From assembly GCA_963674595.2 (NCBI GenBank), contig CAXXFV010000003.1:288001-352000 (forward strand): 64,000 nucleotides of DNA, given 5' to 3'. The notes under the pieces are model-generated. The model had not been told where the DNA came from. It saw only the letters and a list, made by a program, of their open reading frames with translations, and did not search any database. This stretch comes from a bacterium (GTDB taxonomy: Bacteria; Zhuqueibacterota; Zhuqueibacteria; Residuimicrobiales; Krinioviventaceae). This document shows positions 11,420 to 51,785 of the stretch, one piece after another (position 1 is the stretch's first letter; every line of letters starts with the position of its first letter). A program made the position numbers and the translations under genes.

Positions 11420-11474
11420 TTGACAATTTAACATTGAATTAGTATATTTGTTCTAAGAATTTGAACCGGTTTAA
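11420..11474 (+). promoter_or_regulatory. Sigma70 promoter plus LacI-type operator of the TRAP/hexuronate operon
   Basis: TTGACA(11420)-N17-TATATT(11443); near-palindrome TTGAACCGGTTTAA at 11461-11474. Confidence 0.75.
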
Positions 11475-11493
11475 AAACTCACTGGAGGGCATA

Positions 11494-12483
11494 ATGCAGC
11501 CTATCAAATTATATCTTAAATTGTTTTCGATCTTATTGTTAGCCGTTTTTATTTTGTCAGGTTGCGGCACTAAAAGCAACGTTGTTTCATTAAAAATGGC
11601 TCATGGCCTGGATGTCAGTCATCCGGTTCACAAAGCTATGGTTTTTATGGCAGAGAAAGCCTGGGAAAAATCGGATTCAACATTAAAAGTTGATATCTAT
11701 CCAAGTGAACAATTGGGAAATGAAAAAGAGTGTATTGAACAACTGCAACTGGGAAGCCTGGCAATGACCAAAGTCTCCAGCAGCCCCCTGGAGAGTTTTA
11801 TTCCGAAATTAAAAGTATTGGCCCTCCCCTATTTGTTCCGAGATGCCGAACATAAATGGAACGTATTTAACGGACCGATTGGTAAAGAACTTTTATCTGC
11901 CGGTGAACCCGAAGGTTTAAAAGGATTATGTTTTTATGATGCAGGCGCCAGAAGTTTTTACACAACTTCTAAACCAATCCTGCACCCGGATGATCTGAAA
12001 GGTCTTAAAATAAGAACACAGCAAAGCCCGATGGCTATTAAAATGATCTCCACACTGGGCGGTTCAGCTACACCCATTTCATGGGGCGAACTTTATACCT
12101 CATTACAGCAGGGCGTTGTTGACGGTGCAGAAAACAATCAACCGAGTTTATACACCTCAAATCACTATGAAGTTTGTAAACATTATAGTCTGGATGAACA
12201 CACAATGGTTCCGGATATTGTTATGATCAGTACCATCGTGTGGAATCGTTTATCAGAGGCACATAAAAAAGCATTACAGGAAGCTATTGATGAATCCGTT
12301 CCCTATCAAATCAATCTTTGGAATGAGTTTGTTCGGGATGCAACAGATAAAATGGTGGCAAAAGGATTAAAAATATATAACCCGGATAAAGCCGCTTTTA
12401 TGGAACGAGCAAAAGAGATGTATAAAGAATTTGAAGGAACAGAAATCGGCGAACTGGCAAAACGTATTCAAAAAGTTGAGTAA
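11494..12483 (+). CDS. dctP: TRAP transporter substrate-binding lipoprotein DctP (probably uronate)
   Basis: LSGC lipobox, YPSEQLG, DLKGLKIR, ELYTSLQQGVVDGAEN; ATG at 11494 follows GGAGG. Confidence 0.92.
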   Translation: MQPIKLYLKLFSILLLAVFILSGCGTKSNVVSLKMAHGLDVSHPVHKAMVFMAEKAWEKSDSTLKVDIYPSEQLGNEKECIEQLQLGSLAMTKVSSSPLESFIPKLKVLALPYLFRDAEHKWNVFNGPIGKELLSAGEPEGLKGLCFYDAGARSFYTTSKPILHPDDLKGLKIRTQQSPMAIKMISTLGGSATPISWGELYTSLQQGVVDGAENNQPSLYTSNHYEVCKHYSLDEHTMVPDIVMISTIVWNRLSEAHKKALQEAIDESVPYQINLWNEFVRDATDKMVAKGLKIYNPDKAAFMERAKEMYKEFEGTEIGELAKRIQKVE

Positions 12484-12486
12484 ATT

Positions 12487-13002
12487 ATGTGGATAAAAAT
12501 AAAATCTGCATTGGATAAATCACTGGAATGGTTAACGGCCATCCTCATGGCAGCATTAACCATTGATGTCACATGGCAGGTTATCACCAGATTTATTTTA
12601 AAAAACCCCAGTGACTGGACAGAAGAACTGGCCACGTTTCTTATGATTTGGGTTGGCTTATTGGGTGCAGCAGTTGCATTAAACAGAGGCGCCCACCTTG
12701 GCATAGATTATTTTGTGTCAAAATTCAAACCGGCTAACCGCCTGTTTACAGAGTTGTTTGTTCATCTGTCTGTAGGATTCTTTTCTGTTGGTGTTATGTT
12801 ATTAGGTGGTCTCAAGCTTGTTACTATAACCATGGCACGCGGACAGATTTCTCCGGCATTAAAAATCCCCATGGGATATGTTTATTTAGCAATACCCATT
12901 GCCGGATTTTTCTTAACATACTATAGTCTTGAATTTTTAATAGAAACAATAATAAAATTAAAGGCTAAAAATAAAAATGATGTTCCTTATGTAAAAATAT
13001 AA
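12487..13002 (+). CDS. dctQ: TRAP transporter small permease DctQ
   Basis: Four TM helices, WTEEL, HLGID. Confidence 0.92.
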   Translation: MWIKIKSALDKSLEWLTAILMAALTIDVTWQVITRFILKNPSDWTEELATFLMIWVGLLGAAVALNRGAHLGIDYFVSKFKPANRLFTELFVHLSVGFFSVGVMLLGGLKLVTITMARGQISPALKIPMGYVYLAIPIAGFFLTYYSLEFLIETIIKLKAKNKNDVPYVKI

Positions 13003-13037
13003 TGTAATAACATTGACTCTTTAATAAAGGTTCTTCT

Positions 13038-14333
13038 ATGGATTGGCCTGTTATTGTTTTAATTACAAGTTTTCTTATATTTTTAGTATTAAATGTACCC
13101 ATAGCTGTTTCAATCGGTCTGTCATCGCTGTTGACCATTTTTACAATCGGAGGCATACCGGCATTTTTAACTATTGCACACAAAATTGCAACAGGAATAG
13201 ACAGTTTTGCATTGTTAGCTATACCATTTTTTATCCTGGCAGGACAACTAATGGGCCAGGGCGGAATTGCCAAACGTTTAATCGATTTTGCCAACGTGCT
13301 TGTCGGTAGATTTCCAGGCGGACTGTCCTTTGTCAACATTCTGACCTGCATGCTCTTTGGTGCAATATCCGGCTCTGCTGTTGCGGCCGTTTCGAGTGTT
13401 GGTGGTTTTATGATTCCGCTGATGAATAAAGAAGGTTATCACCGTGACTTTAATGCCTCTGTCACTATTACGGCGGCAACAACCGGTCTTCTTATTCCTC
13501 CGAGCAATGTAATGATTGTTTACTCCCTGGCTACAGGTGGTGCAGTTTCCATTGCCGCCATATTCCTGGCCGGATTTCTGCCGGGAATTTTAATGGGGCT
13601 TGGTTTAATGGTTGTCAGTGGATTCATATCCGTTAAAAATGGCTATGGTAAAGGTGTAACCTTTGGTTTTCAGGAAAGTATTAAAAGATTTCTAATCGCT
13701 ATCCCGGCACTGTTTTTAGTTGTACTGGTCCTTGGCGGTATTCTGGCCGGATATTTCACAGCCACGGAAGCCTCTGCTATTGCCGTTGTTTATGCGCTTA
13801 TTTTATCCGTCTTTGTTTATCGTGAAGTTAAAATAAAAGATTTACCCAAAATTTTCCTTCAGGCAGGAATCACTACCTCTGTTGTATTTCTATTAATTGG
13901 CACATCTATGGCCATGTCCTATGTTCTTGCTTATGAAAATATCCCCCAAAATATTAGCGCTGCGCTGCTGAGTATCACGCAAAACAAAATTATAATTTTA
14001 TTAATTATTAATTTATTATTATTGTTTGTCGGAACTTTTATGGATATGACGCCCGCAGTCCTTATTTTTACCCCTATTTTCCTCCCAATCGTTACAGGGC
14101 TGGGTGTGCATCCTATCCATTTTGGCATTCTGATGATTATGAATTTATGTATAGGCATTTGTACTCCACCTGTAGGTTCATGCCTTTTTGTAGGGTGTGG
14201 TATTGCCGAAACAACAATTACCAAAGTCATTCGCCATATTCTTCCATTTTTTATGGCAATGATAATCGTACTGTTTATAGTTACCTATATCCCTGCTATT
14301 TCTCTGATCGTACCAAAACTTTTTGGATTTTAA
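13038..14333 (+). CDS. dctM: TRAP transporter large permease DctM
   Basis: LLAIPFFILAG, FGAISGS, LLIPPS, FTATE, TPPVG. Confidence 0.95.
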   Translation: MDWPVIVLITSFLIFLVLNVPIAVSIGLSSLLTIFTIGGIPAFLTIAHKIATGIDSFALLAIPFFILAGQLMGQGGIAKRLIDFANVLVGRFPGGLSFVNILTCMLFGAISGSAVAAVSSVGGFMIPLMNKEGYHRDFNASVTITAATTGLLIPPSNVMIVYSLATGGAVSIAAIFLAGFLPGILMGLGLMVVSGFISVKNGYGKGVTFGFQESIKRFLIAIPALFLVVLVLGGILAGYFTATEASAIAVVYALILSVFVYREVKIKDLPKIFLQAGITTSVVFLLIGTSMAMSYVLAYENIPQNISAALLSITQNKIIILLIINLLLLFVGTFMDMTPAVLIFTPIFLPIVTGLGVHPIHFGILMIMNLCIGICTPPVGSCLFVGCGIAETTITKVIRHILPFFMAMIIVLFIVTYIPAISLIVPKLFGF

Positions 14334-14336
14334 AAC

Positions 14337-14368
14337 AAAACGCCGGAATATAAAAACCGGCGTTTTTT
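14337..14368 (+). terminator. Hairpin/terminator between dctM and the LacI gene
   Basis: aaaacgccgg/ccggcgtttttt. Confidence 0.65.
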
Positions 14369-14379
14369 AACTACAAAAA

Positions 14380-14393
14380 TTAAAGCGGTTCAA
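14380..14393. promoter_or_regulatory. Second LacI-type operator, directly before the regulator start codon
   Basis: TTAAAGCGGTTCAA (reverse complement TTGAACCGCTTTAA), one mismatch to the site at 11461. Confidence 0.65.
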
Positions 14394-14396
14394 ATT

Positions 14397-15434
14397 ATGG
14401 CAATTACAATTTCCGACATTGCACGGATTGCAGGTGTCTCTCGTGCAACTGTTTCCGGTGTTCTTAATAACAATCCATCTGTTAGTGAAAAAACCAGGCA
14501 ACGAATACTAACAATTATCAAAGAGCATGATTACAGACCAAATGAAATCGCTCGGGCATTAGCCTTAAATCAAACAGATATTATCGGACTTATTGTTAAA
14601 GATATTTCAAATCCCCTATATAGTAAAATTGCATTGGGTGTTGAAGAGACCTGTGCAAAAATGGGGTATTCAGTCATTATTGGTAACACTCAAAAAGATA
14701 TTCAACGCGAAATTTCACACATAAATCTGCTGAAAAGACGACGTGTAGACGGGCTCATTATTTTTCCATTGCAGCGAGGTGCAGATCTGGGTCATCTTTT
14801 TGAACTCAAAGAAGAAAATTATCCTTTTGTTCTTCTTGCTGAAGTTCCCGGTATAAAAGCAGACCTTGTCCGTTCGGATGATCAACCCGGCGCCTATCAG
14901 GCCACTAAACACCTGATAAATCTGGGTAGAAAACATATCGCTTACATAACAGGGCCGCAAAACGCCCTGGCAAATGACAGAAGACTTGGCTCCTATAAGC
15001 AGGCGCTCAATGATCACAATTTATCTTTAAATGAAGAACTGATACGTCCTGGCGGCTGGAGACGGAGTGACGGCTATAAAGCCGGTAAATTAATGCTAAA
15101 CGAGCTAAAAGAATATCCGGATGGTGCATTTTGTTACAACGATGCGGTTGCAATTGGTTTCATAAGAGCATTAGTTGAACATGGATTACGAATTCCCCAG
15201 GATGTGGCTATCGTCGGGTTTGATGATGCCGGTTCTGCCGCATATTTGGAGACAGCATTAACTACAGTAGAACAGCCCGCCAAAGAAATTGGAAACAAGG
15301 CCGCTCAATTGCTTGTAGAGCGGATTAAAAATAAAAAAGAACAACAGAGAACTAAAAAGATACTTTTACCCACATCATTAGTTATTCGTGAATCATGCGG
15401 TGCCAATGAAAAAGGTTCGGTTAAAGTATTCTAA
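14397..15434 (+). CDS. LacI-family transcriptional regulator
   Basis: TISDIARIAGVSRATVS HTH, YRPNEIARAL hinge, VGFDD, LTTV. Confidence 0.95.
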   Translation: MAITISDIARIAGVSRATVSGVLNNNPSVSEKTRQRILTIIKEHDYRPNEIARALALNQTDIIGLIVKDISNPLYSKIALGVEETCAKMGYSVIIGNTQKDIQREISHINLLKRRRVDGLIIFPLQRGADLGHLFELKEENYPFVLLAEVPGIKADLVRSDDQPGAYQATKHLINLGRKHIAYITGPQNALANDRRLGSYKQALNDHNLSLNEELIRPGGWRRSDGYKAGKLMLNELKEYPDGAFCYNDAVAIGFIRALVEHGLRIPQDVAIVGFDDAGSAAYLETALTTVEQPAKEIGNKAAQLLVERIKNKKEQQRTKKILLPTSLVIRESCGANEKGSVKVF

Positions 15435-15455
15435 GACAACAAAAAGGGTCTATCT

Positions 15456-16997
15456 ATGAAAAGCGATCAACAACTACAAGAATTGATGAATCAAATAAAA
15501 ACTCAATTTGACATCAAAATTGAAAAATATTATGAAACATCTTTGGTCGATAAAGATCAACAGAATTATGTGCTTTTAAAAACTGAAACCAGTAAAAAAT
15601 TGTTGGTATGGGGTCAGGAAGCGGATGCTCAGTTTAAGGGCGAGTCTGTTCAGTTAAAAATAGGTGATGTTGATTATGATGTAAAACTGTGCCCGCTTAC
15701 CCATGAAAATAGTTTAATAATGAGAAAAGTCTTTCCCTGGACAGGTCCAAAAACGGTTGGGTTACAAACGAGTTTCGGTGCCGGAGACAGAATTGGTGTT
15801 GCAACCCCCGGTCATATCAGAGCGCTGAAACAATACAACATCGTTCCGGTAATTGCCCAACAATCCATTCGCGAAATGAACCGAACGGTCCGTACATCAG
15901 AAGAGGTTATGGATGATGTTACCTGGGCTGTTTTTCAGGAAGGATATAAAGATGGATTCGGTTCTGACGCTGATCACCTTAAAACAGAACAGGATATTCA
16001 AAATACATTTGCAGCCGGATTTACAGGCTTTACCGTTGATCCATCCGACCATATAAATAATGAGGCAGACACATTAACTTCGGATGATCTTGAAAAAGCA
16101 TATCTTGGCGTATTTGATTCACCTGAATCAGCACAGGAGTTTTTAAAAAAATATGCTAATAACGAGGTCACGGTAAAAGGTAATGACAGATCATTAACTC
16201 TTTTTATCCCGGAAGAAGAAGTCAAAAGACTGGCCGTAAAATATATGACGGCAATCAAACATACCATCAACTGTTATAACCTTTTAAAGTCTCTTCATGG
16301 TGATAAGGAATTTGATTTTGAAATGTCGGTAGACGAAACAGAAACACCAACAACAGTAGCTGCCCATTATATCGTAGCAAACGAATTAGCCAAAGCTGAG
16401 GTACAGTGCACTTCGTTGGCGCCGAGGTTTATTGGTGAATTTCAAAAAGCAATCGATTATATCGGTGATGTCGATACGTTCCGCCAGCAGCTTATCGATC
16501 ATGTAACAATTTCTCAACATTTTGGCGGCTACAAAATCAGCATCCATTCCGGAAGTGATAAATACTCTATCTTTCCGATTGTTGGTGAAGAAACAAAAGG
16601 CGTATTTCATGAAAAAACAGCCGGCACAAGTTATCTTGAAGCATTACGAATTGTCAGCCGACATGATACAAAGTTGTTCCGTGAGATCGCCGTATTTGCA
16701 CGCGAAAAATTTGAAAAAGAACGTTTTTCCTATCATGTAACAACAGATATGAAAAAAGTTCCGACTGTAGATCAACTGACCGATGCTCAACTGGAATCCA
16801 TGCTGAACGAAGACGATGCAAGACAGGTACTGCATATCACTTTTGGTGGTACGTTGACGGAAAAGGATGCAAACGGTAATTATATTTTCAGAAATCGTAT
16901 TCTGGATGTTTTACACAAACAGGAAGAAGAACATTATAACGTTCTGGAAACTCTTTTTATAAAACATATTGAAGCATTTGGCGTTACAAAAAAATAA
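15456..16997 (+). CDS. uxaE: Tagaturonate/fructuronate epimerase
   Basis: SFGAGDRIG, AQQSIRE, DADHLK, FEMSVDET, APRFIGEFQKAIDY, SIHSGSDK, KTAGTSYLEAL. Confidence 0.92.
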   Translation: MKSDQQLQELMNQIKTQFDIKIEKYYETSLVDKDQQNYVLLKTETSKKLLVWGQEADAQFKGESVQLKIGDVDYDVKLCPLTHENSLIMRKVFPWTGPKTVGLQTSFGAGDRIGVATPGHIRALKQYNIVPVIAQQSIREMNRTVRTSEEVMDDVTWAVFQEGYKDGFGSDADHLKTEQDIQNTFAAGFTGFTVDPSDHINNEADTLTSDDLEKAYLGVFDSPESAQEFLKKYANNEVTVKGNDRSLTLFIPEEEVKRLAVKYMTAIKHTINCYNLLKSLHGDKEFDFEMSVDETETPTTVAAHYIVANELAKAEVQCTSLAPRFIGEFQKAIDYIGDVDTFRQQLIDHVTISQHFGGYKISIHSGSDKYSIFPIVGEETKGVFHEKTAGTSYLEALRIVSRHDTKLFREIAVFAREKFEKERFSYHVTTDMKKVPTVDQLTDAQLESMLNEDDARQVLHITFGGTLTEKDANGNYIFRNRILDVLHKQEEEHYNVLETLFIKHIEAFGVTKK

Positions 16998-17009
16998 CCG
17001 GAGGAAATT

Positions 17010-17789
17010 TTGAGTTATATTGAAAACATTTTTAGTTTAAAAGGTAAAGTTGCAGCGGTTATCGGCGGCGGTGGTGTCTTGGCCGGCGCTATGGCAGAAG
17101 GTTTGGCAAAAGCCGGAGCTGACATAGCCATTCTGGACTTGAACCCGGAAAATGCAAAAAACACAGCGGATAAAATGAGTGCGCATGGTGTAAAATCACT
17201 GCCCATTGCTGTTAATGCAACATCCAAAGAAGAATTGACTAAAGCAGAAGAACAGATCAGAAAAGAGCTGGGTGCCACATCCATTCTTATTAATGCACCC
17301 GGAATCAACTCGTCCACACCGTTTTTCGAAATTGCAGAAGAAGAATGGGACAAAATTATACAGGTAAACCTGAAAAGCATTTTTATGGCCAGTCAAATTT
17401 TCGGTAAAAAAATGATTGAGAATAATTTAAAAGGAAGCATTATAAATATTTCATCAGCTTCCTCAGGACCGCCTCTGTCTAAAGTTTTTACCTATAGCAT
17501 TAGTAAAGCCGGTATAAATAACATGACACAGTTTTTAGCTAAAGAATGGGCAACGCAGGGTATACGCGTTAATGCAATTGCACCCGGATTTTTTCCGGCA
17601 GAACAAAACAGAAAAATCCTGACAAAAGAACGTGTAGCATCCATTATGGGGCATACCCCAATGGACCGTTTCGGTGAAGCTGAAGAGCTTGTCGGCGCAA
17701 CCATTTGGTTGGCCTCTGAAAAGGCCTCCTCATTTGTTACAGGTGCTATTGTCAGAGTCGATGGTGGATTTACAGCAATGACGATATAA
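17010..17789 (+). CDS. SDR oxidoreductase, D-mannonate oxidoreductase/fructuronate reductase-like
   Basis: GGGGVL, YSISKA, NAIAPGFFPAEQNR, HTPMDRFG; directly after uxaE. Confidence 0.8.
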   Translation: MSYIENIFSLKGKVAAVIGGGGVLAGAMAEGLAKAGADIAILDLNPENAKNTADKMSAHGVKSLPIAVNATSKEELTKAEEQIRKELGATSILINAPGINSSTPFFEIAEEEWDKIIQVNLKSIFMASQIFGKKMIENNLKGSIINISSASSGPPLSKVFTYSISKAGINNMTQFLAKEWATQGIRVNAIAPGFFPAEQNRKILTKERVASIMGHTPMDRFGEAEELVGATIWLASEKASSFVTGAIVRVDGGFTAMTI

Positions 17790-17863
17790 TTATTTTAGGA
17801 ATGTCAATAATAATTTATAAAAATAAACAACTAAACTTGAAACAAGAATTTGGAGTCATTTAA

Positions 17864-19318
17864 ATGAGTACTTTTGACATTGGACTTGTCGGGCTCGCCG
17901 TTATGGGTGAGAATTTGGTTTTAAATATGGAAAATCACGGTTTTTCAGTTGCCGTATTCAACAGAACAACAAGCAAGGTTGACAATTTTGTAAACGGCCG
18001 TGCAAAAGGCAAAAACATTAAAGGCTGTTATTCTATTGAAGAGTTGATTGCCAATTTAAAACGACCACGCAAAATCATGTTAATGGTTAAAGCCGGTGCA
18101 GCAGTAGACAGTTTTATAGAAATGCTGCTTCCGCATTTGGAAAAAGGCGACATTATCATTGACGGCGGTAACAGCCATTTTCCGGATACCATGCGACGAA
18201 CAAATTATCTTGAAGAAAAAGGTGTTCTTTTTATCGGTACCGGTGTTTCCGGCGGCGAAGAAGGCGCATTAACCGGTCCTTCAATTATGCCGGGCGGTTC
18301 AACTGAAGCATGGCCGCATGTAAAACCGATTTTTCAGGCAATTGCAGCCAAAGTTTCCGATGGTTCACCCTGCTGCGAATGGGTAGGACGTGATGGTGCA
18401 GGCCATTTTGTTAAAACAGTCCACAATGGCATCGAATACGGTGATATGCAGATGATTTGTGAAGCTTATAATTTGATGAAAAATGTTTTAGGCATGTCTA
18501 CTGAAGAAATGCACAACGTTTTTGGTGAATGGAATAAAGGCGAACTGGACAGTTATTTAATCGAAATTACCCGAGATATTCTGGCTAAAAAAGATGAAGA
18601 AACAAACGAACCGATTGTAGAATTAATTCTTGATACGGCTGGTCAAAAAGGCACCGGTAAATGGACCAGTCAGGCTGCATTGGACCTCGGCATCCCGGCA
18701 CAAACAGTTGCCGAAGCGGTGTTTGCCCGCGCTATGAGTGCTATTAAAGAAGAACGTGTTGCTGCATCCAAAGAGTTAAAAGGACCGGATGCAAAATTTA
18801 CCGGAGATAAAGAAGAATTTGTTGAAATGATCCGTAAAGCATTATACGCTTCAAAAATTTGTTCCTATGCTCAGGGTTACCAGCTCATGCGCGCAGCCGC
18901 AGCAGAATATAACTGGGACCTGAAATATGGTGAAATCGCACTGATGTGGCGCGGCGGATGTATTATTCGCGCTCACTTTTTGGAAAAAATTAAAGCAGCT
19001 TTTGATAAAAAACCGGACCTGGCAAATCTGCTGCTCGATCCGTACTTTAACAATATTATCGAACAAAATCAAAAGGCATGGCGGGCCGTTATTTCCAAAG
19101 CTGTTGAAATTGGTATTCCGGTTCCTGCATTTAACAGCGCCCTGGCTTATTATGACAGTTACCGAAACGAACGTTTACCGGCGAATCTGCTTCAAGCCCA
19201 AAGAGATTACTTTGGCGCACACACTTATGAAAGAATCGACAAACCTAGAGGTGAGTTCTTCCATACAAATTGGACAGGACGCGGTGGCACTACTTCAGCA
19301 ACAACCTATAACGCTTAG
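17864..19318 (+). CDS. gnd: 6-phosphogluconate dehydrogenase (NADP+, decarboxylating)
   Basis: [52 protein letters not shown]. Confidence 0.98.
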
Positions 19319-19335
19319 TGTCTGTTCACTGAATG

Positions 19336-19370
19336 ATTCGGCCCGTTCGATTACGGGCCGAATATTATTT
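19336..19370 (+). terminator. Hairpin after gnd
   Basis: attcggcccgt/acgggccgaat 11-bp stem, weak T tail. Confidence 0.55.
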
Positions 19371-19389
19371 TATATATTATGTGAGAAAA

Positions 19390-20157
19390 ATGAATACCAA
19401 TTTTAATTTAGAAAATAAAACAGCTCTGATAACAGGAGCCAGCCGTGGTTTGGGTAAAGCTGTTTCACTGGCTTTTGCCGACGCAGGTGCAGACATTGTT
19501 CTGGTTTCGCGAGGTGAAAAAGCTTTGCTCAAAGTGAAAGCAGAAATTGAATTAAAAAACAAAAAAGCCTGGATATTTACGCACGATTTTTCAGATACGC
19601 AGGCCATCCCTGAACTTTATGACAGAATTTTAGAACAAACAAAATCCATTGACATTATTGTCAATGCAGCCGGAATGATCTTCAGGACCGATGCAGCCGA
19701 TTTTCCGTTGGAAGAATGGAATAAAATTCTGGCCGTTAACCTGACGGCCCCTTTTGTCCTGAGCCAGTGTTTTGCAAAATCCTGTATGAAACAACAAAAA
19801 CCAGGAAAAATCATCAACTTTGCTTCTCTGCTCAGCAGAGCGGCGCGACCGTCTCTTCCGGCATATACGGCGAGCAAGGGCGGTATTGTTCAGTTAACAG
19901 CAGCGCTGGCTGTTGAATGGGCGGAGCATCGTATTAATGTCAATGCCATCGGCCCCGGATATTTTGAAACAGAAATGACACGGCCGTTGTCTGAAGATAA
20001 AGAATTTTCAGAATGGGTCAAACAACGTACGCCCATGAATCGTTGGGGACAGCCGTCCGAGCTGACAGGTACGGCCGTCTTTTTAGCATCCGAAGCATCA
20101 AATTTTATTACCGGACAGACGATTTATGTAGACGGCGGCTGGCTGGCCAATTTATAA
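19390..20157 (+). CDS. SDR oxidoreductase, gluconate 5-dehydrogenase (IdnO/Gno)/KduD-like
   Basis: TGASRGLG, YTASKGG, NAIGPGYFETEMT, RTPMNRWG, YVDGGW. Confidence 0.82.
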   Translation: MNTNFNLENKTALITGASRGLGKAVSLAFADAGADIVLVSRGEKALLKVKAEIELKNKKAWIFTHDFSDTQAIPELYDRILEQTKSIDIIVNAAGMIFRTDAADFPLEEWNKILAVNLTAPFVLSQCFAKSCMKQQKPGKIINFASLLSRAARPSLPAYTASKGGIVQLTAALAVEWAEHRINVNAIGPGYFETEMTRPLSEDKEFSEWVKQRTPMNRWGQPSELTGTAVFLASEASNFITGQTIYVDGGWLANL

Positions 20158-20181
20158 ACATATATTTCAGGAAAAAATATA

Positions 20182-21450
20182 ATGATCGGACAAGGATTCA
20201 CAGATAAAAATTTAAATGAACAGCAGGTTCAGGAACTTTGCCGACAGGCTTTTGAAGAGAATAAAAACCTGCTTGAAGGGAAAAAAGTATTGGCCATTAT
20301 TCCGGACCATTCCCGAACCGCGCCAATTGATATAATGTTTCGCACTTTTTATAACCTGTTGGCAGATAAAGTTAAAAATCTTGATTTTATCATTGCCTTA
20401 GGGACCCATCCGCCTATGACGGAAGAAATGATTTATCAGCGTGTGGGTATAACCGCAGAACAGCATCAAAACGTGTACTCAAAAGCACGTTTTTTCAATC
20501 ATCACTGGGACGACCCCGCGCAACTGGCGAATATCGGGACAATTTCAGCAAAACAAGTTGCCGAAATATCCAACGGACTTTTGAATGAAAAAGTTGATGT
20601 AACAATCAATAAAATGGTGCTGGATTATGATGTTCTCTTCATCATTGGCCCGACGTTCCCGCACGAAGTTGTGGGATTTTCAGGCGGAAATAAATATTTA
20701 TTTCCGGGTATCGGCGGAAAAGAAATTATCGACATGTTTCACTGGCTGGGCGCTTTAATAACCAATCCGGCAATTATAGGGACAAAATACACACCCGTCC
20801 GTAAAGTTGTGGACATCGCCGCTGCATTTTTACCGGTTCCTCGCTTATGTGCAAGTCTGGTTGTGAAGGGAACCGACCTTGCCGGTTTATATATCGGTAC
20901 CCCGGAAGAGGCCTGGGCTTCCGCATCAAATTTATCAGATAAATTACATATTGTATATAAGGACCATCCTTTTAAAAGTGTTTTATCATGTGCACCTGCC
21001 ATGTACGATGAAATATGGACAGGCGGTAAATGCATGTACAAGCTGGAACCCGTTGTAGCAGATGGCGGGGAACTGATTATTTATGCTCCTCATATCAGCG
21101 AGGTTTCCATCACACATGGAAAAATTATCGAACAAATCGGTTACCATGTTCGAGATTATTTTACAAAACAGCCTGAAAAATTTGCCGATATTCCGGGCGG
21201 TGTTAAAGCACATTCAACACATGTCAGGGGTGTCGGTACATTTGAAAATGGCATAGAAAAACCCAGGGTGCAGGTGACGCTGGCCACAAAAATACCGGAA
21301 GAAACTTGTAAAAAGATTAATCTGGGTTATCGTGATCCGGATTCGATTGACGTTTCCGAGTGGCAGGACCGGGAAGATGAAGGTTATTTATATGTTAAAA
21401 AAGCAGGTGAAATGCTGTATCGGTTAAAAAATGATCCGTTTAAATTATAA
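20182..21450 (+). CDS. LarA-family nickel-pincer-dependent alpha-hydroxyacid racemase/epimerase
   Basis: PDHSRT, IALGTHPPM, NHHW, PHEVVGFSGGNKY, GGKCMYK, GGELII. Confidence 0.88.
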   Translation: MIGQGFTDKNLNEQQVQELCRQAFEENKNLLEGKKVLAIIPDHSRTAPIDIMFRTFYNLLADKVKNLDFIIALGTHPPMTEEMIYQRVGITAEQHQNVYSKARFFNHHWDDPAQLANIGTISAKQVAEISNGLLNEKVDVTINKMVLDYDVLFIIGPTFPHEVVGFSGGNKYLFPGIGGKEIIDMFHWLGALITNPAIIGTKYTPVRKVVDIAAAFLPVPRLCASLVVKGTDLAGLYIGTPEEAWASASNLSDKLHIVYKDHPFKSVLSCAPAMYDEIWTGGKCMYKLEPVVADGGELIIYAPHISEVSITHGKIIEQIGYHVRDYFTKQPEKFADIPGGVKAHSTHVRGVGTFENGIEKPRVQVTLATKIPEETCKKINLGYRDPDSIDVSEWQDREDEGYLYVKKAGEMLYRLKNDPFKL

Positions 21451-21483
21451 TTATATATAGATACGATTATTTCGGAGGATAAA

Positions 21484-22776
21484 ATGGCGTTAAATAAAAA
21501 TGTTGTGGTTGCACAATCCGGTGGTCCATCGCCGGTCATTAATAATACCCTTCGCGGTATTATTGAAACGTGCAAAATGTTTCCAGATAAATTTGACAAA
21601 ATCTATGGCGGATGGCATGGTATTGAAGGCGTTCTGAAAGAAGAACTACTGGATATTACCGCACAAACAGAAGAAGAAATCAGTTTATTAAGAACAACAC
21701 CCGCCGCCGGTTCCATCGGTACATGTCGTTACAAACTGAAAGCAAACCAACAGGAAGATTTTGAACGGGTTGTAGAGGTTTTAAAGGCCCATAATATCGG
21801 CTACTTTTTCTACATCGGTGGTAATGATTCCATGGACACGGCAAACAAAATTGCACAAATAGCCCATGAAAAAGGATTGGACCTGATTGCTGTCGGTGGT
21901 TCCAAAACAATCGATAACGACGTAGGTGATTCCGAATTTAAGCTTGTCGATCACACACCCGGTTATGGTTCTGTCGCCAAATACTGGGCCATGAATGTGC
22001 AAAATGCCAATGAAGAAAACATGGGATCCTGCCCGGCTGATCCTGTGCTTGTTATGCAGGTGATGGGACGAAAAATAGGATTTATTCCCGCCGCAGCTCG
22101 TTTGGCAGATGTAAAACGTGAATTACCATTGCAAATTTATATGCCGGAATCAAACCTTACCCTGGATGAACTGACCGACAATGTAAATGACGAATTAGCC
22201 AAAAGCGGCCGTTGTATTGTTGTTGTTAGTGAAGGATTTGACGTTGGTGATCTTGGTGAAATGAAAGACGGATTCGGTCATACCGAATTCAGCGCCAGCA
22301 TGTTTACCGCGCAGCAGATTATCGTTAACCACCTTAATAAAGTGGGTATCAAAGCAAAAGGCGCTGCCAGAGGTCAGGTTGTTGGAACAGACCAGCGTGA
22401 TACAATGATTTACGCTTCAACGGTTGATTTGGATGAAGCCTACAAAGTCGGACAAAATGCCGTTGTTATCGCTGTTGAACACGGATCCGGTTACATGTCA
22501 ACAATCTTGCGCCGACCTGGATTGATTTACAATGTTGATTTTGACAAGGTCCCGCTTGATGAAGTTGCCAATTCTGAACGGGAATTCCCGAAAAACTGGA
22601 TTACGGAAAATAAAATTGACGTAACAGATGATTTTGTAAAATATGCCCGTCCCTTAATCGGAGAAGAATGGGTCAGCGTACCTGTGATAAACGGTATTCA
22701 ACGTTTTGCACGATTTGCACCCATATTTGCAGACAAAAAACTGCCGGCCTATGTGCCGCAAACAGAACGAAAATAA
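21484..22776 (+). CDS. PfkA-family kinase with PPi-dependent signature (Pfp-like, divergent)
   Basis: AQSGGPSPVINN, GTCRYKL, GGNDS, KTIDND, MGR, VVSEG. Confidence 0.85.
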   Translation: MALNKNVVVAQSGGPSPVINNTLRGIIETCKMFPDKFDKIYGGWHGIEGVLKEELLDITAQTEEEISLLRTTPAAGSIGTCRYKLKANQQEDFERVVEVLKAHNIGYFFYIGGNDSMDTANKIAQIAHEKGLDLIAVGGSKTIDNDVGDSEFKLVDHTPGYGSVAKYWAMNVQNANEENMGSCPADPVLVMQVMGRKIGFIPAAARLADVKRELPLQIYMPESNLTLDELTDNVNDELAKSGRCIVVVSEGFDVGDLGEMKDGFGHTEFSASMFTAQQIIVNHLNKVGIKAKGAARGQVVGTDQRDTMIYASTVDLDEAYKVGQNAVVIAVEHGSGYMSTILRRPGLIYNVDFDKVPLDEVANSEREFPKNWITENKIDVTDDFVKYARPLIGEEWVSVPVINGIQRFARFAPIFADKKLPAYVPQTERK

Positions 22777-22817
22777 AATAACATTTAATATAAGAATTTA
22801 TAAAAAAGGAAAAATAT

Positions 22818-23702
22818 ATGTCAGATCCCCAAGCACCCTTGAAAGATTTGCAGCCAAAACATGAATATTTGGTAGCGATCGACTCGGATGGTTGTGCCTT
22901 TGATACAATGGAAATCAAACACAAAGAATGTTTTATCCCCAATATTATTAAATATTGGGATCTTCAAAGCGTATCCAAATACGCCAGAATGGCGGCCGAA
23001 TTTGTTAACCTGTATTCAAAATGGCGCGGTATTAACCGTTTTCCGGCGTTGACCATGGTTTTTGATCTGCTGCAGGAATGGCCGGATGTTCAAAAACGAC
23101 ATGTTAAAATACCACAGGCACAAGCCGTGCGTGACTGGATAGAACGGGAAACAAAACTGGGAAACCCGGCATTAAAGGCACTTGTTGAAAAAACCAGTGA
23201 TCCGGTACTAACACAAGCCCTTGACTGGAGTGAAGCTGTAAATGCAACCGTAACCGATATGGTGCACGGAGTCCCTCCTTTTCCGTTCGTTAAAGAAAGC
23301 CTGGAAAAAATTTCAGAATGGGCGGACATTATCGTTTGTTCGGCAACCCCAAATGAAGCTTTACAGCGTGAATGGGAAGAACACGACATTGCCAAATACA
23401 CGCGTGTTATTGCAGGCCAGGAAATGGGTAGTAAAAAAGAACATTTAGCTTTTATGACCCAAAATAAATATAAAAGTGATCATGTTCTTATGATTGGCGA
23501 TGCACCGGGAGACCGGAAAGCAGCGGAAGCCAACAATACCCTCTTTTTTCCAATCAAACCCGGTCACGAAGATGAAAGCTGGGAATTCTTTTTAAACAAT
23601 GCCTCGGACAAGTTTAAAAACGGAGCATATACGGCCGAGTATCAGGCAGGGTTAATCAAGGAATTTGAAGCCCTGTTGCCGACGACACCTCCCTGGAAAT
23701 AA
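22818..23702 (+). CDS. HAD-superfamily hydrolase
   Basis: IDSDGCAFD (motif I), CSAT (II), K (III), MIGDAPGD (IV). Confidence 0.85.
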   Translation: MSDPQAPLKDLQPKHEYLVAIDSDGCAFDTMEIKHKECFIPNIIKYWDLQSVSKYARMAAEFVNLYSKWRGINRFPALTMVFDLLQEWPDVQKRHVKIPQAQAVRDWIERETKLGNPALKALVEKTSDPVLTQALDWSEAVNATVTDMVHGVPPFPFVKESLEKISEWADIIVCSATPNEALQREWEEHDIAKYTRVIAGQEMGSKKEHLAFMTQNKYKSDHVLMIGDAPGDRKAAEANNTLFFPIKPGHEDESWEFFLNNASDKFKNGAYTAEYQAGLIKEFEALLPTTPPWK

Positions 23703-23711
23703 TGTTTTATT

Positions 23712-23746
23712 AAAAGCCTTTTCATAATTAATGAAAAGGCTTTTTC
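23712..23746 (+). terminator. Intrinsic terminator closing the hexuronate cluster
   Basis: aaaagccttttcat/atgaaaaggcttttt perfect inverted repeat. Confidence 0.8.
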
Positions 23747-48696: not shown

Positions 48697-48761
48697 AAAA
48701 CCGAAACATTTTCCCCAAAGCTTGGTATTATTAGGAGAGCTTGAGAAAATCCGGAGGAAAA

Positions 48762-49871
48762 ATGAAAAAAATAAAACGAGTTGGAATTCTTACAGGCGGT
48801 GGTGATTGTCCCGGTTTAAACGCAGTTATTCGCGCTGTCAGCAAATCGCTGATTAACAACTGTGGTATTGAAGTTATTGGTATTGAAGACGGTTTTTTGG
48901 GGCTTATTGAAAAGAACATGCACAAACTGGGCTGGAATGATGTTTCCGGTATTTTGCAGCGGGGCGGCACAATTTTAGGAACGTCCAACAAGGCAAATCC
49001 CTTTCACCATCCATTTAAAGTAAATGGCGAAACACAATTTGTTGATTATTCCGATCAAACCATACAGAATATTAATGATATGGGCATAGACGCACTTGTT
49101 TGTATTGGCGGAGACGGCACCATGACCATTGCCAATCAATTAATTGAAAAGGGACTGAAAATCGTTGGTGTGCCCAAGACCATAGACAATGATCTCTATG
49201 GAACAGACTTTACATTTGGTTATGATACAGCCGTATCCATTGCGGCGGAAGCAATAGACAGAATTCATACAACAGCTTCTTCACATCATCGTGTTATGAT
49301 TGTAGAAGTTATGGGAAGATACGCCGGCTGGCTGACATTGGGCGCCGGTTTGGCAAGCGGTGCAGACATCATTCTTATTCCCGAAATTGAATATGATCTT
49401 GATATGATTTGCCAAAAAGTGCTGGAGCGCAGCAAAAAAGGACGGCGGTTCAGTATTATTGCCGTTGCCGAAGGTGCAAAACCTGAAGACGGAGAATTGA
49501 CAGTCAGCCGGGTAATTGAAGACAGCCCGGACCAGCTCAGGTTGGGAGGCATCAGTATTAAACTCGGTAATCAAATTGAAGACAAAACAGGGCTGGAAAC
49601 CAGGGCCACGGTTTTGGGGCATTTACAACGAGGCGGCACACCCACCGCTTTTGACAGAATACTTGCAACGAGATATGGCGTGGCAGCAGCACAACTGGTG
49701 GCAACCAATAAATTCGACAGAATGGTAGCCCTTCAGGGAAATGAAATTACATCCGTGCCGATTAAAGACATCGGCGGAAAAACACGAACCGTACCGCTCG
49801 ATTCCCCTCTTATCTGGGTTGCGGAATCTGTTGGTGTCAGTCTCGGTAACAACACCCAAACTTTGGAATAA
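48762..49871 (+). CDS. pfkA: 6-phosphofructokinase (group III, G104/K124 type)
   Basis: TGGGDCPGLN, GGDGT, PKTIDND, EVMGR, LGHLQRGG. Confidence 0.93.
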   Translation: MKKIKRVGILTGGGDCPGLNAVIRAVSKSLINNCGIEVIGIEDGFLGLIEKNMHKLGWNDVSGILQRGGTILGTSNKANPFHHPFKVNGETQFVDYSDQTIQNINDMGIDALVCIGGDGTMTIANQLIEKGLKIVGVPKTIDNDLYGTDFTFGYDTAVSIAAEAIDRIHTTASSHHRVMIVEVMGRYAGWLTLGAGLASGADIILIPEIEYDLDMICQKVLERSKKGRRFSIIAVAEGAKPEDGELTVSRVIEDSPDQLRLGGISIKLGNQIEDKTGLETRATVLGHLQRGGTPTAFDRILATRYGVAAAQLVATNKFDRMVALQGNEITSVPIKDIGGKTRTVPLDSPLIWVAESVGVSLGNNTQTLE

Positions 49872-50322: not shown

Positions 50323-51785
50323 TTATTCTTTATAAGCTTTCAGAATTTTACTGATAATATTGCTCGTTGACATACCATCGATGCCGGCCAAAAGCGCAAT
50401 TTCACCGCCATAGCCTTCCACCAGTTTTCTTTCTTTCTGATTAAGCGAATCAAGTGTATAATCGCCGCCTTTGGCAAAAATATCGGGCTCAATCAGTTCG
50501 ATCAATTTCATCGGACTCGGTTCGTCAAAAATAACAACATAATCCACACATGTCATAGCAGATAATAGTTTTGCCCGCTGGCTTTCCTGAACAATCGGTC
50601 TCAACGGCCCTTTAAATGCCCGCACCGAAGCATCACTGTTTAATCCTACAACCATAACATCACCCAATGATCTGGCCTTTTCCAGATATAATATATGACC
50701 CACATGCATAATATCATAGCAACCGTTTGTCCAAACAACTTTTTTTCCGGCGGCCTTTAATCGGGTTGTAATTGTTTTAATTGTGCCGGTGTAACCAGTT
50801 TTTCTGCCAAAACTTCCACATCCAACTGTTTTTCCTGCTCAATAACATCCTGAACAGTAACGGAAACAAGTCCCGGACGCGACACAGCAACACCGGCCGT
50901 TGTATTTGTAAACCTGGCAATTTCCTGCGCATCGATTTGGGCCAATAAACCGGCTGTCACAGAAGCAACTACGGTTTCTCCGGCCCCGGTAACATCAAAA
51001 ATTTTAAATGTTCGAGTTGGAACGTGATAGTAATTTTCGGTTTGAAAAACATAAATACCTTCAGACCCGCACGTTAAAAACACATGATCACACTTTAATT
51101 TTTTTTGCAGCGTTTTTCCCAGCTTTTCGATGTTATCCTCATCCTGCTCGACAACCGTTCTGCTTTCCTGCTCGTTTGGTGTCACGGCTGTAAATCCGGC
51201 AAACAAACCAAGTTGTTTTTCAGAATCTCCGATACAGATCTTGCCGTCAAAAAAAGATTTCACAGCCTGAATAAATTCTTTATGGATAAAACATTCCGTT
51301 TTATCCATTACAACAAGTGCGTCCATTTTTGCAGAATGTTTTTTAATTTTCGATAATATCTTTTCCTGCAAAATTTGGGGAATGTTTTGGTTTCCGGGGG
51401 TGTCAATTCTTAAAATATCATGATCAGGGTAATGTGCACCTTTTACTGAAATCCGTGTTTGACAATTGGTAAAAACTGATTTATCCTGCATAATTATATC
51501 GGTATTAATCCCCTGTTTCGAAATTTGCCGTAACAGTTCATGTCCGTTTGCATCATCACCAACAAATCCTGCGAGCACCACATGGCAGCCGAAATTTTTA
51601 AGCAAAACCGCCACATGTGCCGCACCGCCGGGTTCCTGTGAACGCTGTTTACTGTGCACAATAGGTATAGGACTTTCTTCAGAAAGCGAATACATGGAAC
51701 CGCGTATATTTTCATTCATAAAAATATCACCAACCACCATCACATTTTTATCTTTTATCTTTTCAAAAACAGACATGTCATTCAT
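50323..51785 (-). CDS. hldE: HldE/RfaE-like bifunctional protein (PfkB-type kinase plus heptose-1-P adenylyltransferase); frameshifted near 50775-50778
   Basis: VVGD, PGGAAHVA, TPNE, DVTGAGET; one added A continues as KKVVWTNGCYDIMHVGH...GLNSDAS...KGGDY...STS. Confidence 0.8.

Follow-up and report, generated by a model that had tools for sequence, protein, structure and literature searches.

A hexuronate gene cluster with a phosphofructokinase-family candidate kinase and a predicted exit through 6-phosphogluconate

Introduction

What becomes of the carbon of hexuronates in a bacterium that lacks the dehydratases leading to 2-keto-3-deoxygluconate (KDG)? The question is raised by a cluster of eleven genes, all on the + strand, located at 11.4-23.7 kb of a 64,000-nucleotide stretch of DNA from a member of the Zhuqueibacterota (the window; positions 288,001 to 352,000 of contig CAXXFV010000003.1, assembly GCA_963674595.2). 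The cluster comprises, in this order, the genes of a TRAP uptake system (dctP, dctQ and dctM), lacI, uxaE, a gene for a short-chain dehydrogenase/reductase (SDR1), gnd, a second gene of this type (SDR2), a LarA/GntE homologue, pfkL, which codes for a protein of the phosphofructokinase (PFK) family, and HADL, which codes for a protein of the HAD phosphohydrolase type. It lies on contig C3 of the source genome (G000; 6.6 Mb in 37 contigs, completeness 97.56%). The open reading frame (ORF) listing and the profile scans of the window, on which the gene calls are based, reproduced the position, gene order and families described in an earlier note, made from the DNA letters alone, as well as its statement that uxuA, kdgK, eda and gntK are all absent from the cluster.

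Homology, gene context and gene absence, from which the single steps are deduced, indicate that the cluster probably serves a hexuronate catabolism that would bypass the Entner-Doudoroff-type lower branch, with pfkL as the C6 kinase, and that it forms either one operon under LacI repression or two transcription units side by side. The TRAP system would import glucuronate or galacturonate, which an unlinked UxaC would isomerise to fructuronate or tagaturonate; UxaE would lead to fructuronate, SDR1 would reduce fructuronate to D-mannonate, and the GntE-like LarA homologue would invert C2. Phosphorylation at C6 by pfkL would provide 6-phosphogluconate, which the Gnd of the cluster would oxidise and decarboxylate to ribulose-5-phosphate, CO2 and NADPH; pfkL would take the place held in Thermotoga by the FGGY gluconate kinase GntK. 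The phosphorylation may follow the epimerisation, which is the Thermotoga order, or precede it, which is the L. suebicus order, both being compatible with the proposal. Uronate carbon 6 would leave as CO2 and would not end in pyruvate.

The missing exit and the upper part of the route

The classical exit was sought by whole-genome profile searches, each of which scored in the control genomes where a match was expected. These searches gave no match for UxuA, for the altronate dehydratase UxaA or for KduI; for ManD the best score of the genome was 96 bits against a cut-off of 550, the members of the enolase superfamily being either dipeptide-epimerase-like or enolase. With UxuA, ManD and UxaA all missing, the gene content falls outside the Entner-Doudoroff-type isomerase pathway: since both dehydratases are missing, mannonate and altronate are predicted not to reach KDG, and nothing was found in the genome that would be expected to convert either of them. 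Elsewhere in the genome, where a complete uxuA-kdgK-eda route would have spoken against the reading of the earlier note, only Eda and a KdgK-like PfkB kinase were found, together on contig C8. The SKI-type GntK is also absent by whole-genome profile search, and the four FGGY kinases of the genome, none of which lies in the cluster, reach at most 145 bits against the gntK_FGGY cut-off of 649. The absence of the dehydratases, the lack of a recognisable gluconate kinase and the conservation of the gene set, which is described below, support the view that the cluster is a hexuronate catabolic unit ending at 6-phosphogluconate dehydrogenase.

At the entry, mature DctP matches solved TRAP binding proteins with E values from 1e-77 to 1e-58; the best match is 4X8R (E 1e-77), followed by 4N8Y, 4MHF and 4N91. 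According to the available parts of the sources, the ligands are glucuronate for 4X8R and 4N91, galacturonate for 4N8Y, and both uronates for 4MHF (PMC11668362, PMC7660916). The genome has one UxaC, which the earlier note had proposed to seek outside the cluster; it is coded on contig C6, adjoining a GH78 rhamnosidase, and scores 549 bits against the cut-off of 387 of the glucuronate isomerase equivalog NF002794. At the other end, the Gnd of the cluster belongs to the 6-phosphogluconate dehydrogenase equivalog, with both the NAD_binding_2 and the 6PGD domains; a second gnd copy, 50% identical to it, is found on contig C23.

Conservation of the gene set

A scan of one genome per prokaryote species identified 55 pfkL loci, the relatives being 68-87% identical, whose record labels include KSB1, Calditrichota, Ignavibacteria, Bacteroidetes/Bacteroidales, Planctomycetia, Elusimicrobia, Hydrogenedentota, Clostridiales and others. 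The genes of these loci were counted by tblastn with the window proteins (E <= 1e-10, query coverage of 50% or more). HADL was found in 53 of the 55 loci, a LarA homologue in 45, gnd in 41 and an SDR1-like gene in 39; UxaE-family genes were present in 24/55, SDR2-like genes in 15/55, LacI in 14/55 and TRAP genes in 11/55. When only the loci flanked on each side by 5 kb or more are considered (32 loci), the counts are 32 for HADL, 29 for gnd, 28 each for the LarA homologue and the SDR1-like gene, and 17 for the UxaE family. HADL lies directly downstream of pfkL, at a distance of 21-288 bp, in 51 loci, and elsewhere in the cluster in two; the two loci in which it was missed are contigs that end at pfkL. 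Since the gene set recurs together in dozens of genomes, its co-occurrence is far above chance, and the gene-neighbourhood analysis suggested in the earlier note indeed revealed a set that is kept across phyla.

The composition around this core is variable. Locus L069 has the order uxaC-SDR-pfkL-HADL-larAH-gnd-MFS-LacI, where larAH is the LarA homologue, and two minimal loci, L050 and L073, consist of gnd-pfkL-HADL beside a TRAP system, without SDR or LarA homologue. The LarA homologues near pfkL are of two types: 21 belong with the window protein, and the other 24 form a second type with about 30% identity. The constant end point of the module is Gnd; therefore, 6-phosphogluconate, or a very close analogue, should be the product of the preceding steps.

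A further entry point was noticed in locus L021, where the cluster containing pfkL, HADL and the LarA homologue also includes an IolO 5-keto-L-gluconate epimerase equivalog (4462-5283, 365 bits) and an ABC sugar transporter. In the inositol route of Thermotoga, IolO feeds tagaturonate; the finding suggests that in the organism carrying L021 inositol-derived tagaturonate enters the same route.

The candidate kinase pfkL

pfkL is the sole kinase-fold protein of the cluster. Databases name its family diphosphate-fructose-6-phosphate phosphotransferase or 6-phosphofructokinase, and it aligns over its full length, with about 40% identity, to 3K2Q (E 1e-72) and 3HNO (E 1e-68). Besides passing the profile of the pyrophosphate (PPi)-dependent PFKs, it has a GGND motif, with the Asp in fourth position, and an SKTIDND motif, with the Lys. 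The PPi-donor signatures are GGDD and PKTIDXD, the Asp and the Lys being the discriminating residues, according to the available part of a recent review (PMC12203962), and the signature residues of pfkL predict pyrophosphate as its phosphoryl donor. The family is distinguished by insertions of its own, of 5-11 residues directly after the catalytic TIDND loop and of 3 residues before R296. At 50% clustering it forms a separate group, whose full-length representatives are 51-62% identical (397-594 bits), with the next full-length relatives at 41% identity or less (262 bits at most). Since four other PFK-family genes exist in the genome, one of them in the window at 48741-49871, pfkL, the fifth and a divergent copy, does not appear to be the housekeeping PFK.

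The distribution of gluconate kinases was compared with that of pfkL. Among 30 pfkL genomes, the SKI-type GntK exceeded its cut-off in one and the FGGY GntK in none, seven had an FGGY match at E <= 1e-60, and UxuA was over its cut-off in seven; among eight genomes with a gnd/HADL cluster and no pfkL, seven had such an FGGY match and none an SKI GntK. The distributions of pfkL and GntK are thus complementary, which provides indirect support for pfkL as the kinase of the route. The sequence of pfkL is not in itself proof of an altered substrate; it is the gene context that argues against fructose-6-phosphate as the physiological one. The change to Pro at the position equivalent to E. coli R162 had been considered as a sign of a lost 6-phosphate site, and it was dropped because most members of the PRK14072 group have a non-basic residue there.

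The HAD-type protein HADL

HADL carries the four HAD motifs, D22-x-D24, S175/T177, K206 and G227-D228-x-x-x-D232, which are invariant in 31 sequences, and is catalytically intact as judged from them; together with a Rossmannoid core bearing a cap, they place it in the HAD superfamily. The cap is long and enlarged, with many invariant Lys and Arg residues. The structural model has a predicted local distance difference test value (pLDDT) of 94.5, and its nearest folds in Foldseek are phosphoglycolate phosphatase, the phosphatase domain of MtlD, CbbY and beta-phosphoglucomutase, none of them close (11-17% identity, TM-scores of 0.33-0.49 on the query). The model gave 160 matches in the PDB at E <= 0.001, and all the listed matches with a functional name are of HAD type; no match to the sequence was found among solved structures at E <= 1, and a look-up in the ESM Atlas returned 'HAD family' clusters only. 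Prediction of a complex between pfkL and HADL gave scores of 0.00, which speak neither for nor against binding.

HADL occurs in more genomes of the window's phylum than pfkL. Of 121 genomes sampled evenly from this phylum (thresholds E <= 1e-30 for HADL and E <= 1e-100 for pfkL), 49 had HADL, among them the window's genome and the unpublished G118 (48/120 without the latter), and 22 had pfkL, all of which also have HADL. An obligate partnership of HADL with pfkL was considered and rejected, as 27 of the 49 HADL-positive genomes are without pfkL; in these HADL still occurs beside gnd and larAH. Fourteen loci were taken from HADL-positive, pfkL-negative genomes: gnd stands beside HADL in eight, six of which also have the LarA homologue, and HADL adjoins a KdgK-like PfkB kinase in four (L077, L080, L083 and L084). 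Five of the 14 show other contexts, and three of the four that were examined (L075, L081, L082 and L083) contain genes for uronate polymers (alginate lyase, heparinase, sulfatase).

HADL is most likely a phosphatase acting on phosphorylated sugar acids, with a role in relief or proof-reading of this branch. Its target may be the wrong epimer, 6-phosphogluconate or 2-keto-3-deoxy-6-phosphogluconate (KDPG) in excess, or a compound that inhibits Gnd; alternatively, HADL may act as a mutase or phosphotransferase. As a separate observation, the HADL homologues of L075, L076, L081 and L083 lie beside genes for alginate lyase, heparinase-like protein, sulfatase, SSF transporter and DUF2264, which are further settings for the use of uronate polymers.

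The LarA homologue

The LarA homologue reaches no equivalog cut-off, the best score being 186 bits for NF052594 against 500, and it falls between groups 18 and 20 of the superfamily. Residues D42, R45, H76, H161-E-V, K171, H187, W279 and K283 are invariant in 14 LarA homologues of such clusters and align with the residues of GntE2. In LarA numbering, R75, K184 and H200 bind the nickel-pincer nucleotide (NPN), and D72, H108, H174 and K298 are catalytic (PMC7583248); the window protein has the residues of the superfamily, as well as the E-V loop and the Trp of helix alpha-11 that are the signature of groups 18-20. Both types of LarA homologues found in pfkL loci retain all NPN-binding and catalytic residues. 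For the second type a sole representative was scanned, from L069, which scores 647 bits with NF052594, named 'group 18 putative hexonate epimerase'.

Weighing the proposed route

Several findings stand against the route with pfkL as its kinase. The genomes compared are mutually related and many are incomplete metagenome-assembled genomes (MAGs). By its HMM (hidden Markov model) score, pfkL counts as a typical PPi-PFK of the PRK14072 subfamily, and it retains the alignable equivalents of the fructose-6-phosphate site (MGR, E250, R296, Q304-R305); the R162-equivalent varies throughout the wider subfamily. A GntK-like FGGY match at E <= 1e-60 is present in 7/30 pfkL genomes. Moreover, in addition to the 27 HADL-positive genomes without pfkL, loci L078, L079, L085 and L088 have the arrangement SDR1-gnd-larAH-HADL and look complete without any kinase, so that the module can evidently do without the kinase, which is an optional addition to it. 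The place of pfkL is occupied in L080 and L084 by a KdgK-like PfkB kinase, 77-81% identical to the one beside eda on contig C8 (gnd-kinase-HADL), an arrangement that may be read in more than one way.

A further point concerns the cofactor of the LarA homologue. The search for larBCE that the earlier note had called for gave an unexpected negative result, as all three are absent from the source genome: profile searches returned no match for LarC, while LarE, with 46 bits at best (cut-off 150), and LarB, with 43 bits (cut-off 175), stayed below their thresholds. Because larB, larC and larE are missing, the proposed epimerase is left without a known source of its cofactor. The same holds for many relatives, LarC being found in 11/30 pfkL genomes, in 7/25 of those whose locus shows a LarA homologue, and, in the phylum sample, in 2/24 genomes with the cluster (completeness of 90% or more in 23 of the 24). 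LarB was over its cut-off in exactly the same two genomes, adjoining LarC, thus providing an internal positive control, and the T. maritima control genome scores for LarC, LarB and LarE; the closed 6.5 Mb chromosome G082, which carries locus L020, has the LarA homologue and lacks LarC and LarB. In the available part of the published work, genomes with larBCE and without larA are mentioned, and the reverse case is not. If a LarA-type enzyme functions without NPN synthesis, the cell would therefore have to rely on cofactor scavenging, on another biosynthetic route or on a different cofactor.

The order of the last steps may differ from that of Thermotoga. In a version of the same pathway that we consider rather unlikely, pfkL would act as early as in L. 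suebicus or even earlier, phosphorylating D-mannonate or D-fructuronate; the LarA homologue would then epimerise the 6-phosphorylated acid to 6-phosphogluconate, and HADL would remove wrongly phosphorylated epimers. The active site of PFK is suited to 2-ketofuranoses that are anionic at C6, and fructuronate is an isostere of fructose-6-phosphate that carries a carboxylate instead of the phosphate ester. In L. suebicus extracts mannonate is phosphorylated first and 6-phosphomannonate is epimerised afterwards, as stated in the available part of the report (PMC6978723). Homologues of the PdxB-type 4-phosphoerythronate dehydrogenase lie between HADL and the LarA homologue in L046 (6108-7307, 438.9 bits) and L055 (12735-13898, 423.9 bits; cut-off 434), a hint of phosphorylated 2-hydroxy acid intermediates or of an NAD-dependent C2 inversion, and the second type of LarA homologue, to which 24 of the 45 near pfkL belong, has as its scanned representative, from L069, a member of group 18, whose substrate is untested (PMC7583248). 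However, the window protein is nearest to T. maritima GntE2, which is active on unphosphorylated mannonate, and the minimal loci L050 and L073 fit a direct phosphorylation of gluconate better; the sequences do not discriminate between the two orders.

It is improbable, in our judgement, that pfkL is what its database name says, namely a genuine PPi-dependent phosphofructokinase, or a sedoheptulose-7-phosphate kinase, that processes the pentose phosphates derived from Gnd, with the sugar-acid kinase coded elsewhere, for example by the KdgK-like PfkB. The NF010675 profile is passed, the identity to the deposited PPi-PFKs 3K2Q and 3HNO is about 40%, the catalytic residues and most of those of the sugar site are retained, and kinase-less clusters exist. 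Such a role would have a precedent in PPi-PFKs that replace transaldolase through phosphorylation of sedoheptulose-7-phosphate, as described in the available part of PMC12203962, and the source genome, at 97.56% completeness, has no match to TAL_FSA (PF00923). This last argument is weakened by the fact that all six searched family relatives with pfkL have transaldolase, in one to three copies, which makes pfkL a poor candidate for a transaldolase substitute; in the source genome, either the gene lies in the unassembled part or the strain uses another route. Furthermore, the genome has its four other PFK-family genes, pfkL forms a tight group (representatives at least 51% identical) with insertions of its own at the active-site loop, the genes found almost invariably around it are those for HADL, Gnd and a LarA homologue instead of glycolytic or pentose-phosphate genes, and a recognisable gluconate kinase is rare in the genomes that carry it.

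The preferred reading is a hexuronate route to 6-phosphogluconate with pfkL as the C6 kinase. A wider claim may be built on it, which we put forward tentatively and regard as possible although doubtful when all its parts are taken jointly: that the pfkL family represents the first sugar-acid kinase with a PfkA fold, a PPi-dependent 6-kinase for gluconate, mannonate or fructuronate and, in these lineages, the non-orthologous counterpart of the still gene-less mannonate kinase step; that it is accompanied by a dedicated HAD phosphatase for phosphorylated sugar acids; and that LarA-type epimerases work in cells unable to make the nickel-pincer cofactor.

Relation to known systems

The logic of the route is not new. 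In Thermotoga maritima, the UxaR regulon includes the operon aldH-pelB-gnd-uxaR-uxaE-uxaD-gntE-gntK (available part of PMC3750489), which shares with the window cluster gnd, uxaE, an SDR-type fructuronate reductase and a LarA-family GntE, all in one regulated cluster; other Thermotoga species have a TRAP uptake system, as found here. The common logic leads from hexuronate to mannonate, gluconate and 6-phosphogluconate, and from there to the pentose phosphate pathway. Unlike the Thermotoga operon, in which the kinase is the FGGY GntK, the window cluster has a PFK-family protein, which falls outside the GntK families, together with an additional HAD protein and second SDR; its repressor is of the LacI family, whereas that of Thermotoga is of the GntR family, and the host genome lacks larBCE, for which T. 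maritima has matches to all three. The hybrid isomerase/phosphoketolase pathway of L. suebicus (PMC6978723, in the part available) similarly uses UxaC, UxaE and fructuronate reductase to form mannonate, which leads to 6-phosphogluconate and Gnd, and is redox-neutral down to ribulose-5-phosphate; there the conversion of mannonate to 6-phosphogluconate was measured as activity in extracts, whereas the window route is known from genes alone. The kinase and epimerase genes of the L. suebicus route were stressed as unknown in the part of that paper available (Valk 2020, PMC6978723).

The single proteins also have known relatives. The gluconate 2-epimerases GntE (LarAH19, LarAH20) are biochemically proven (PMC7583248), and groups 19/20 and group 18 of the LarA superfamily have in common with the window protein the fold and all NPN and catalytic residues. 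In the available part of the same study, the gene context of group 18 includes SDR, Gnd, a ribokinase-family kinase, MFS, UxaC and KduI, and that of group 20 an FGGY kinase, with no PFK and no HAD; most of the host genomes compared here lack NPN biosynthesis. The Asp in GG(D/N/G)D and the Lys in (P/S)KTIDND are common to pfkL and the PRK14072 PPi-PFKs (3K2Q, 3HNO), as are MGR and the catalytic Asp residues; pfkL differs from them in being always located within a sugar-acid cluster. In the available part of a 2025 review of the PFK superfamily the words 'gluconate' and 'uronate' do not occur, and sedoheptulose-7-phosphate is named as an additional physiological substrate of some PPi-dependent PFKs (PMC12203962). 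The classical UxaC-UxaB-UxaA/UxuB-UxuA-KdgK-Eda route has its upper part (UxaC and keto-uronate reduction) in common with the proposed one, a KdgK-like kinase and Eda being coded elsewhere in the genome. HADL has the Rossmann-like core, the C1 helical cap and the four catalytic motifs of the HAD subfamily IA phosphatases and mutases.

The route is therefore of the Thermotoga/L. suebicus type, and the central idea of the earlier note is right but not new. The note had also stated that the sole kinase of the cluster is a PPi-type PFK homologue and that the variant was not one it recognised as described; the part on the kinase stands, as pfkL and HADL were not recognised in the literature, but the route itself has its precedent in the T. 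maritima operon, which follows the same logic. No description of a PFK-type sugar-acid kinase was found in the literature searched, a corpus that largely leaves subscription journals outside its coverage. What is new is the PPi-type PFK-family candidate kinase in place of GntK, the conserved HAD enzyme that travels with gnd and the LarA homologue even without pfkL, and the missing cofactor pathway.

Polymers rich in uronates, pectin among them, are a major source of carbon in sediments, soils and guts. A redox-neutral 6-phosphogluconate route alters which fermentation products are formed and where the carboxyl carbon ends up, and such a route is wanted for engineering. The pair formed by pfkL and HADL and the two LarA groups are candidates for the kinase and epimerase steps that have no gene; they occur in anaerobic degraders of polysaccharides, which by their record titles belong to at least eight groups of phylum level. 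Should pfkL prove to be a sugar-acid kinase, many database entries now called PPi-phosphofructokinase would bear a wrong name; metabolic reconstructions of these MAG lineages would then count too many glycolytic PFKs and overlook a uronate pathway. The LarA homologues with intact cofactor residues in genomes devoid of larBCE represent a testable puzzle for the nickel-pincer field.

Gene features and regulatory sites

The features of the cluster are collected in Table 1. Translation of dctP most likely starts at ATG 11494, which is preceded by GGAGG and opens a lipoprotein signal, and not at TTG 11461; for SDR2 the start is most likely ATG 19391. SDR2 is unlikely to be a classical KduD, since the genome is without KduI.

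Table 1. Genes and predicted regulatory sites of the hexuronate cluster (window coordinates)
Feature	Position	Strand	Evidence
Sigma-70-like promoter, TTGACA-17-TATATT	11420..11448	+	11/12 consensus positions, best site of the region
Candidate LacI-family operator, palindrome TGAACCGGTTTA	11462..11473	.	Follows the -10 box, ahead of the ribosome-binding site of dctP
dctP, TRAP solute-binding lipoprotein, predicted hexuronate binder	11494..12483	+	PF03480, 283 bits
dctQ, TRAP small permease	12487..13002	+	PF04290, 114 bits
dctM, TRAP large permease	13038..14333	+	PF06808, 398 bits; TIGR00786, 434 bits
Second operator-like palindrome, TGAACCGCTTTA on the - strand	14381..14392	.	1 mismatch to the 11462 site; immediately upstream of lacI
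lacI, LacI-family repressor	14397..15434	+	LacI HTH and Peripla_BP_3; below every equivalog cut-off
uxaE, tagaturonate/fructuronate 3-epimerase	15456..16997	+	PF16257, 579 bits (cut-off 27), full-length, profile positions 1-473 of 475
SDR1, predicted fructuronate reductase (SDR-type D-mannonate oxidoreductase, UxaD-like)	17010..17789	+	NF006132, 273.4 bits (cut-off 281)
gnd, decarboxylating NADP-type 6-phosphogluconate dehydrogenase	17864..19318	+	TIGR00873, 787 bits (cut-off 427)
GC-rich hairpin and T run	19336..19373	+	11-pair stem with 7 G-C, then ATTATTTTAT; between gnd stop 19318 and SDR2 ATG 19391
SDR2, KduD/gluconate-5-dehydrogenase-like reductase	19391..20157	+	TIGR01832, 264 bits (cut-off 339); NF006070, 254 bits (cut-off 279)
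LarA-superfamily homologue, predicted hexonate (or 6-phosphohexonate) 2-epimerase, GntE-like	20182..21450	+	Lar_N, 83 bits; 4NAR (T. maritima GntE2), E 3.8e-69, 237 bits
pfkL, PFK-family protein with PPi-type signature, candidate sugar-acid 6-kinase replacing GntK	21484..22776	+	NF010675, 375 bits (cut-off 273)
HADL, C1-cap HAD phosphohydrolase-type protein	22818..23702	+	HAD_2, 34 bits
Intrinsic-terminator-like hairpin closing the cluster	23712..23744	+	14 pairs (4 G-C), loop 5, tail TCATTTTAAT

The promoter is called by consensus match only, in a region whose 38 promoter-like sites are not in excess of the 35.4 +/- 5.5 found in shuffled sequences. The palindrome TGAACCGGTTTA has a single exact copy in the window, and with up to two mismatches it gives 16 matches where 7.8 +/- 3.3 are expected. 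Its degenerate form TRAACCGSTTYA occurs in 9/96 loci compared; in seven of them (L020, L026, L031, L078, L084, L085 and L088) it adjoins the start of a homologous dctP or lacI, and in L037 and L082 it lies elsewhere. Because it recurs beside the dctP and lacI starts of homologous clusters, the palindrome at 11462-11473 is a credible candidate for an operator.

The earlier note had seen the cluster as bounded by an operator-bearing promoter and a strong terminator: a candidate for the former was found, and so was a closing hairpin, although the G-C pairs in its stem are 4 of 14 only. The hairpin between gnd and SDR2 may be an internal terminator, an attenuator, a processing site or an element stabilising the mRNA; since this GC-richer hairpin with its T run separates the two genes, two transcription units are possible.

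Other genes of the window

A small ferredoxin gene of 61 residues, of the 4Fe-4S type, lies at 11115-11300, directly upstream of the cluster promoter, and is followed by a hairpin of its own at about 11322-11355. No pectinolytic enzymes were found in the remainder of the window, the genes of which are unrelated to the cluster. The Rho-like ORF at 3284-4012 has 242 residues only, with an RNA-binding domain and a partial ATPase domain, and may be truncated, frameshifted or wrongly delimited. Finally, another PfkB-family sugar kinase, of 342 residues, is coded on the - strand at 50757-51785, 27 kb downstream of the cluster.

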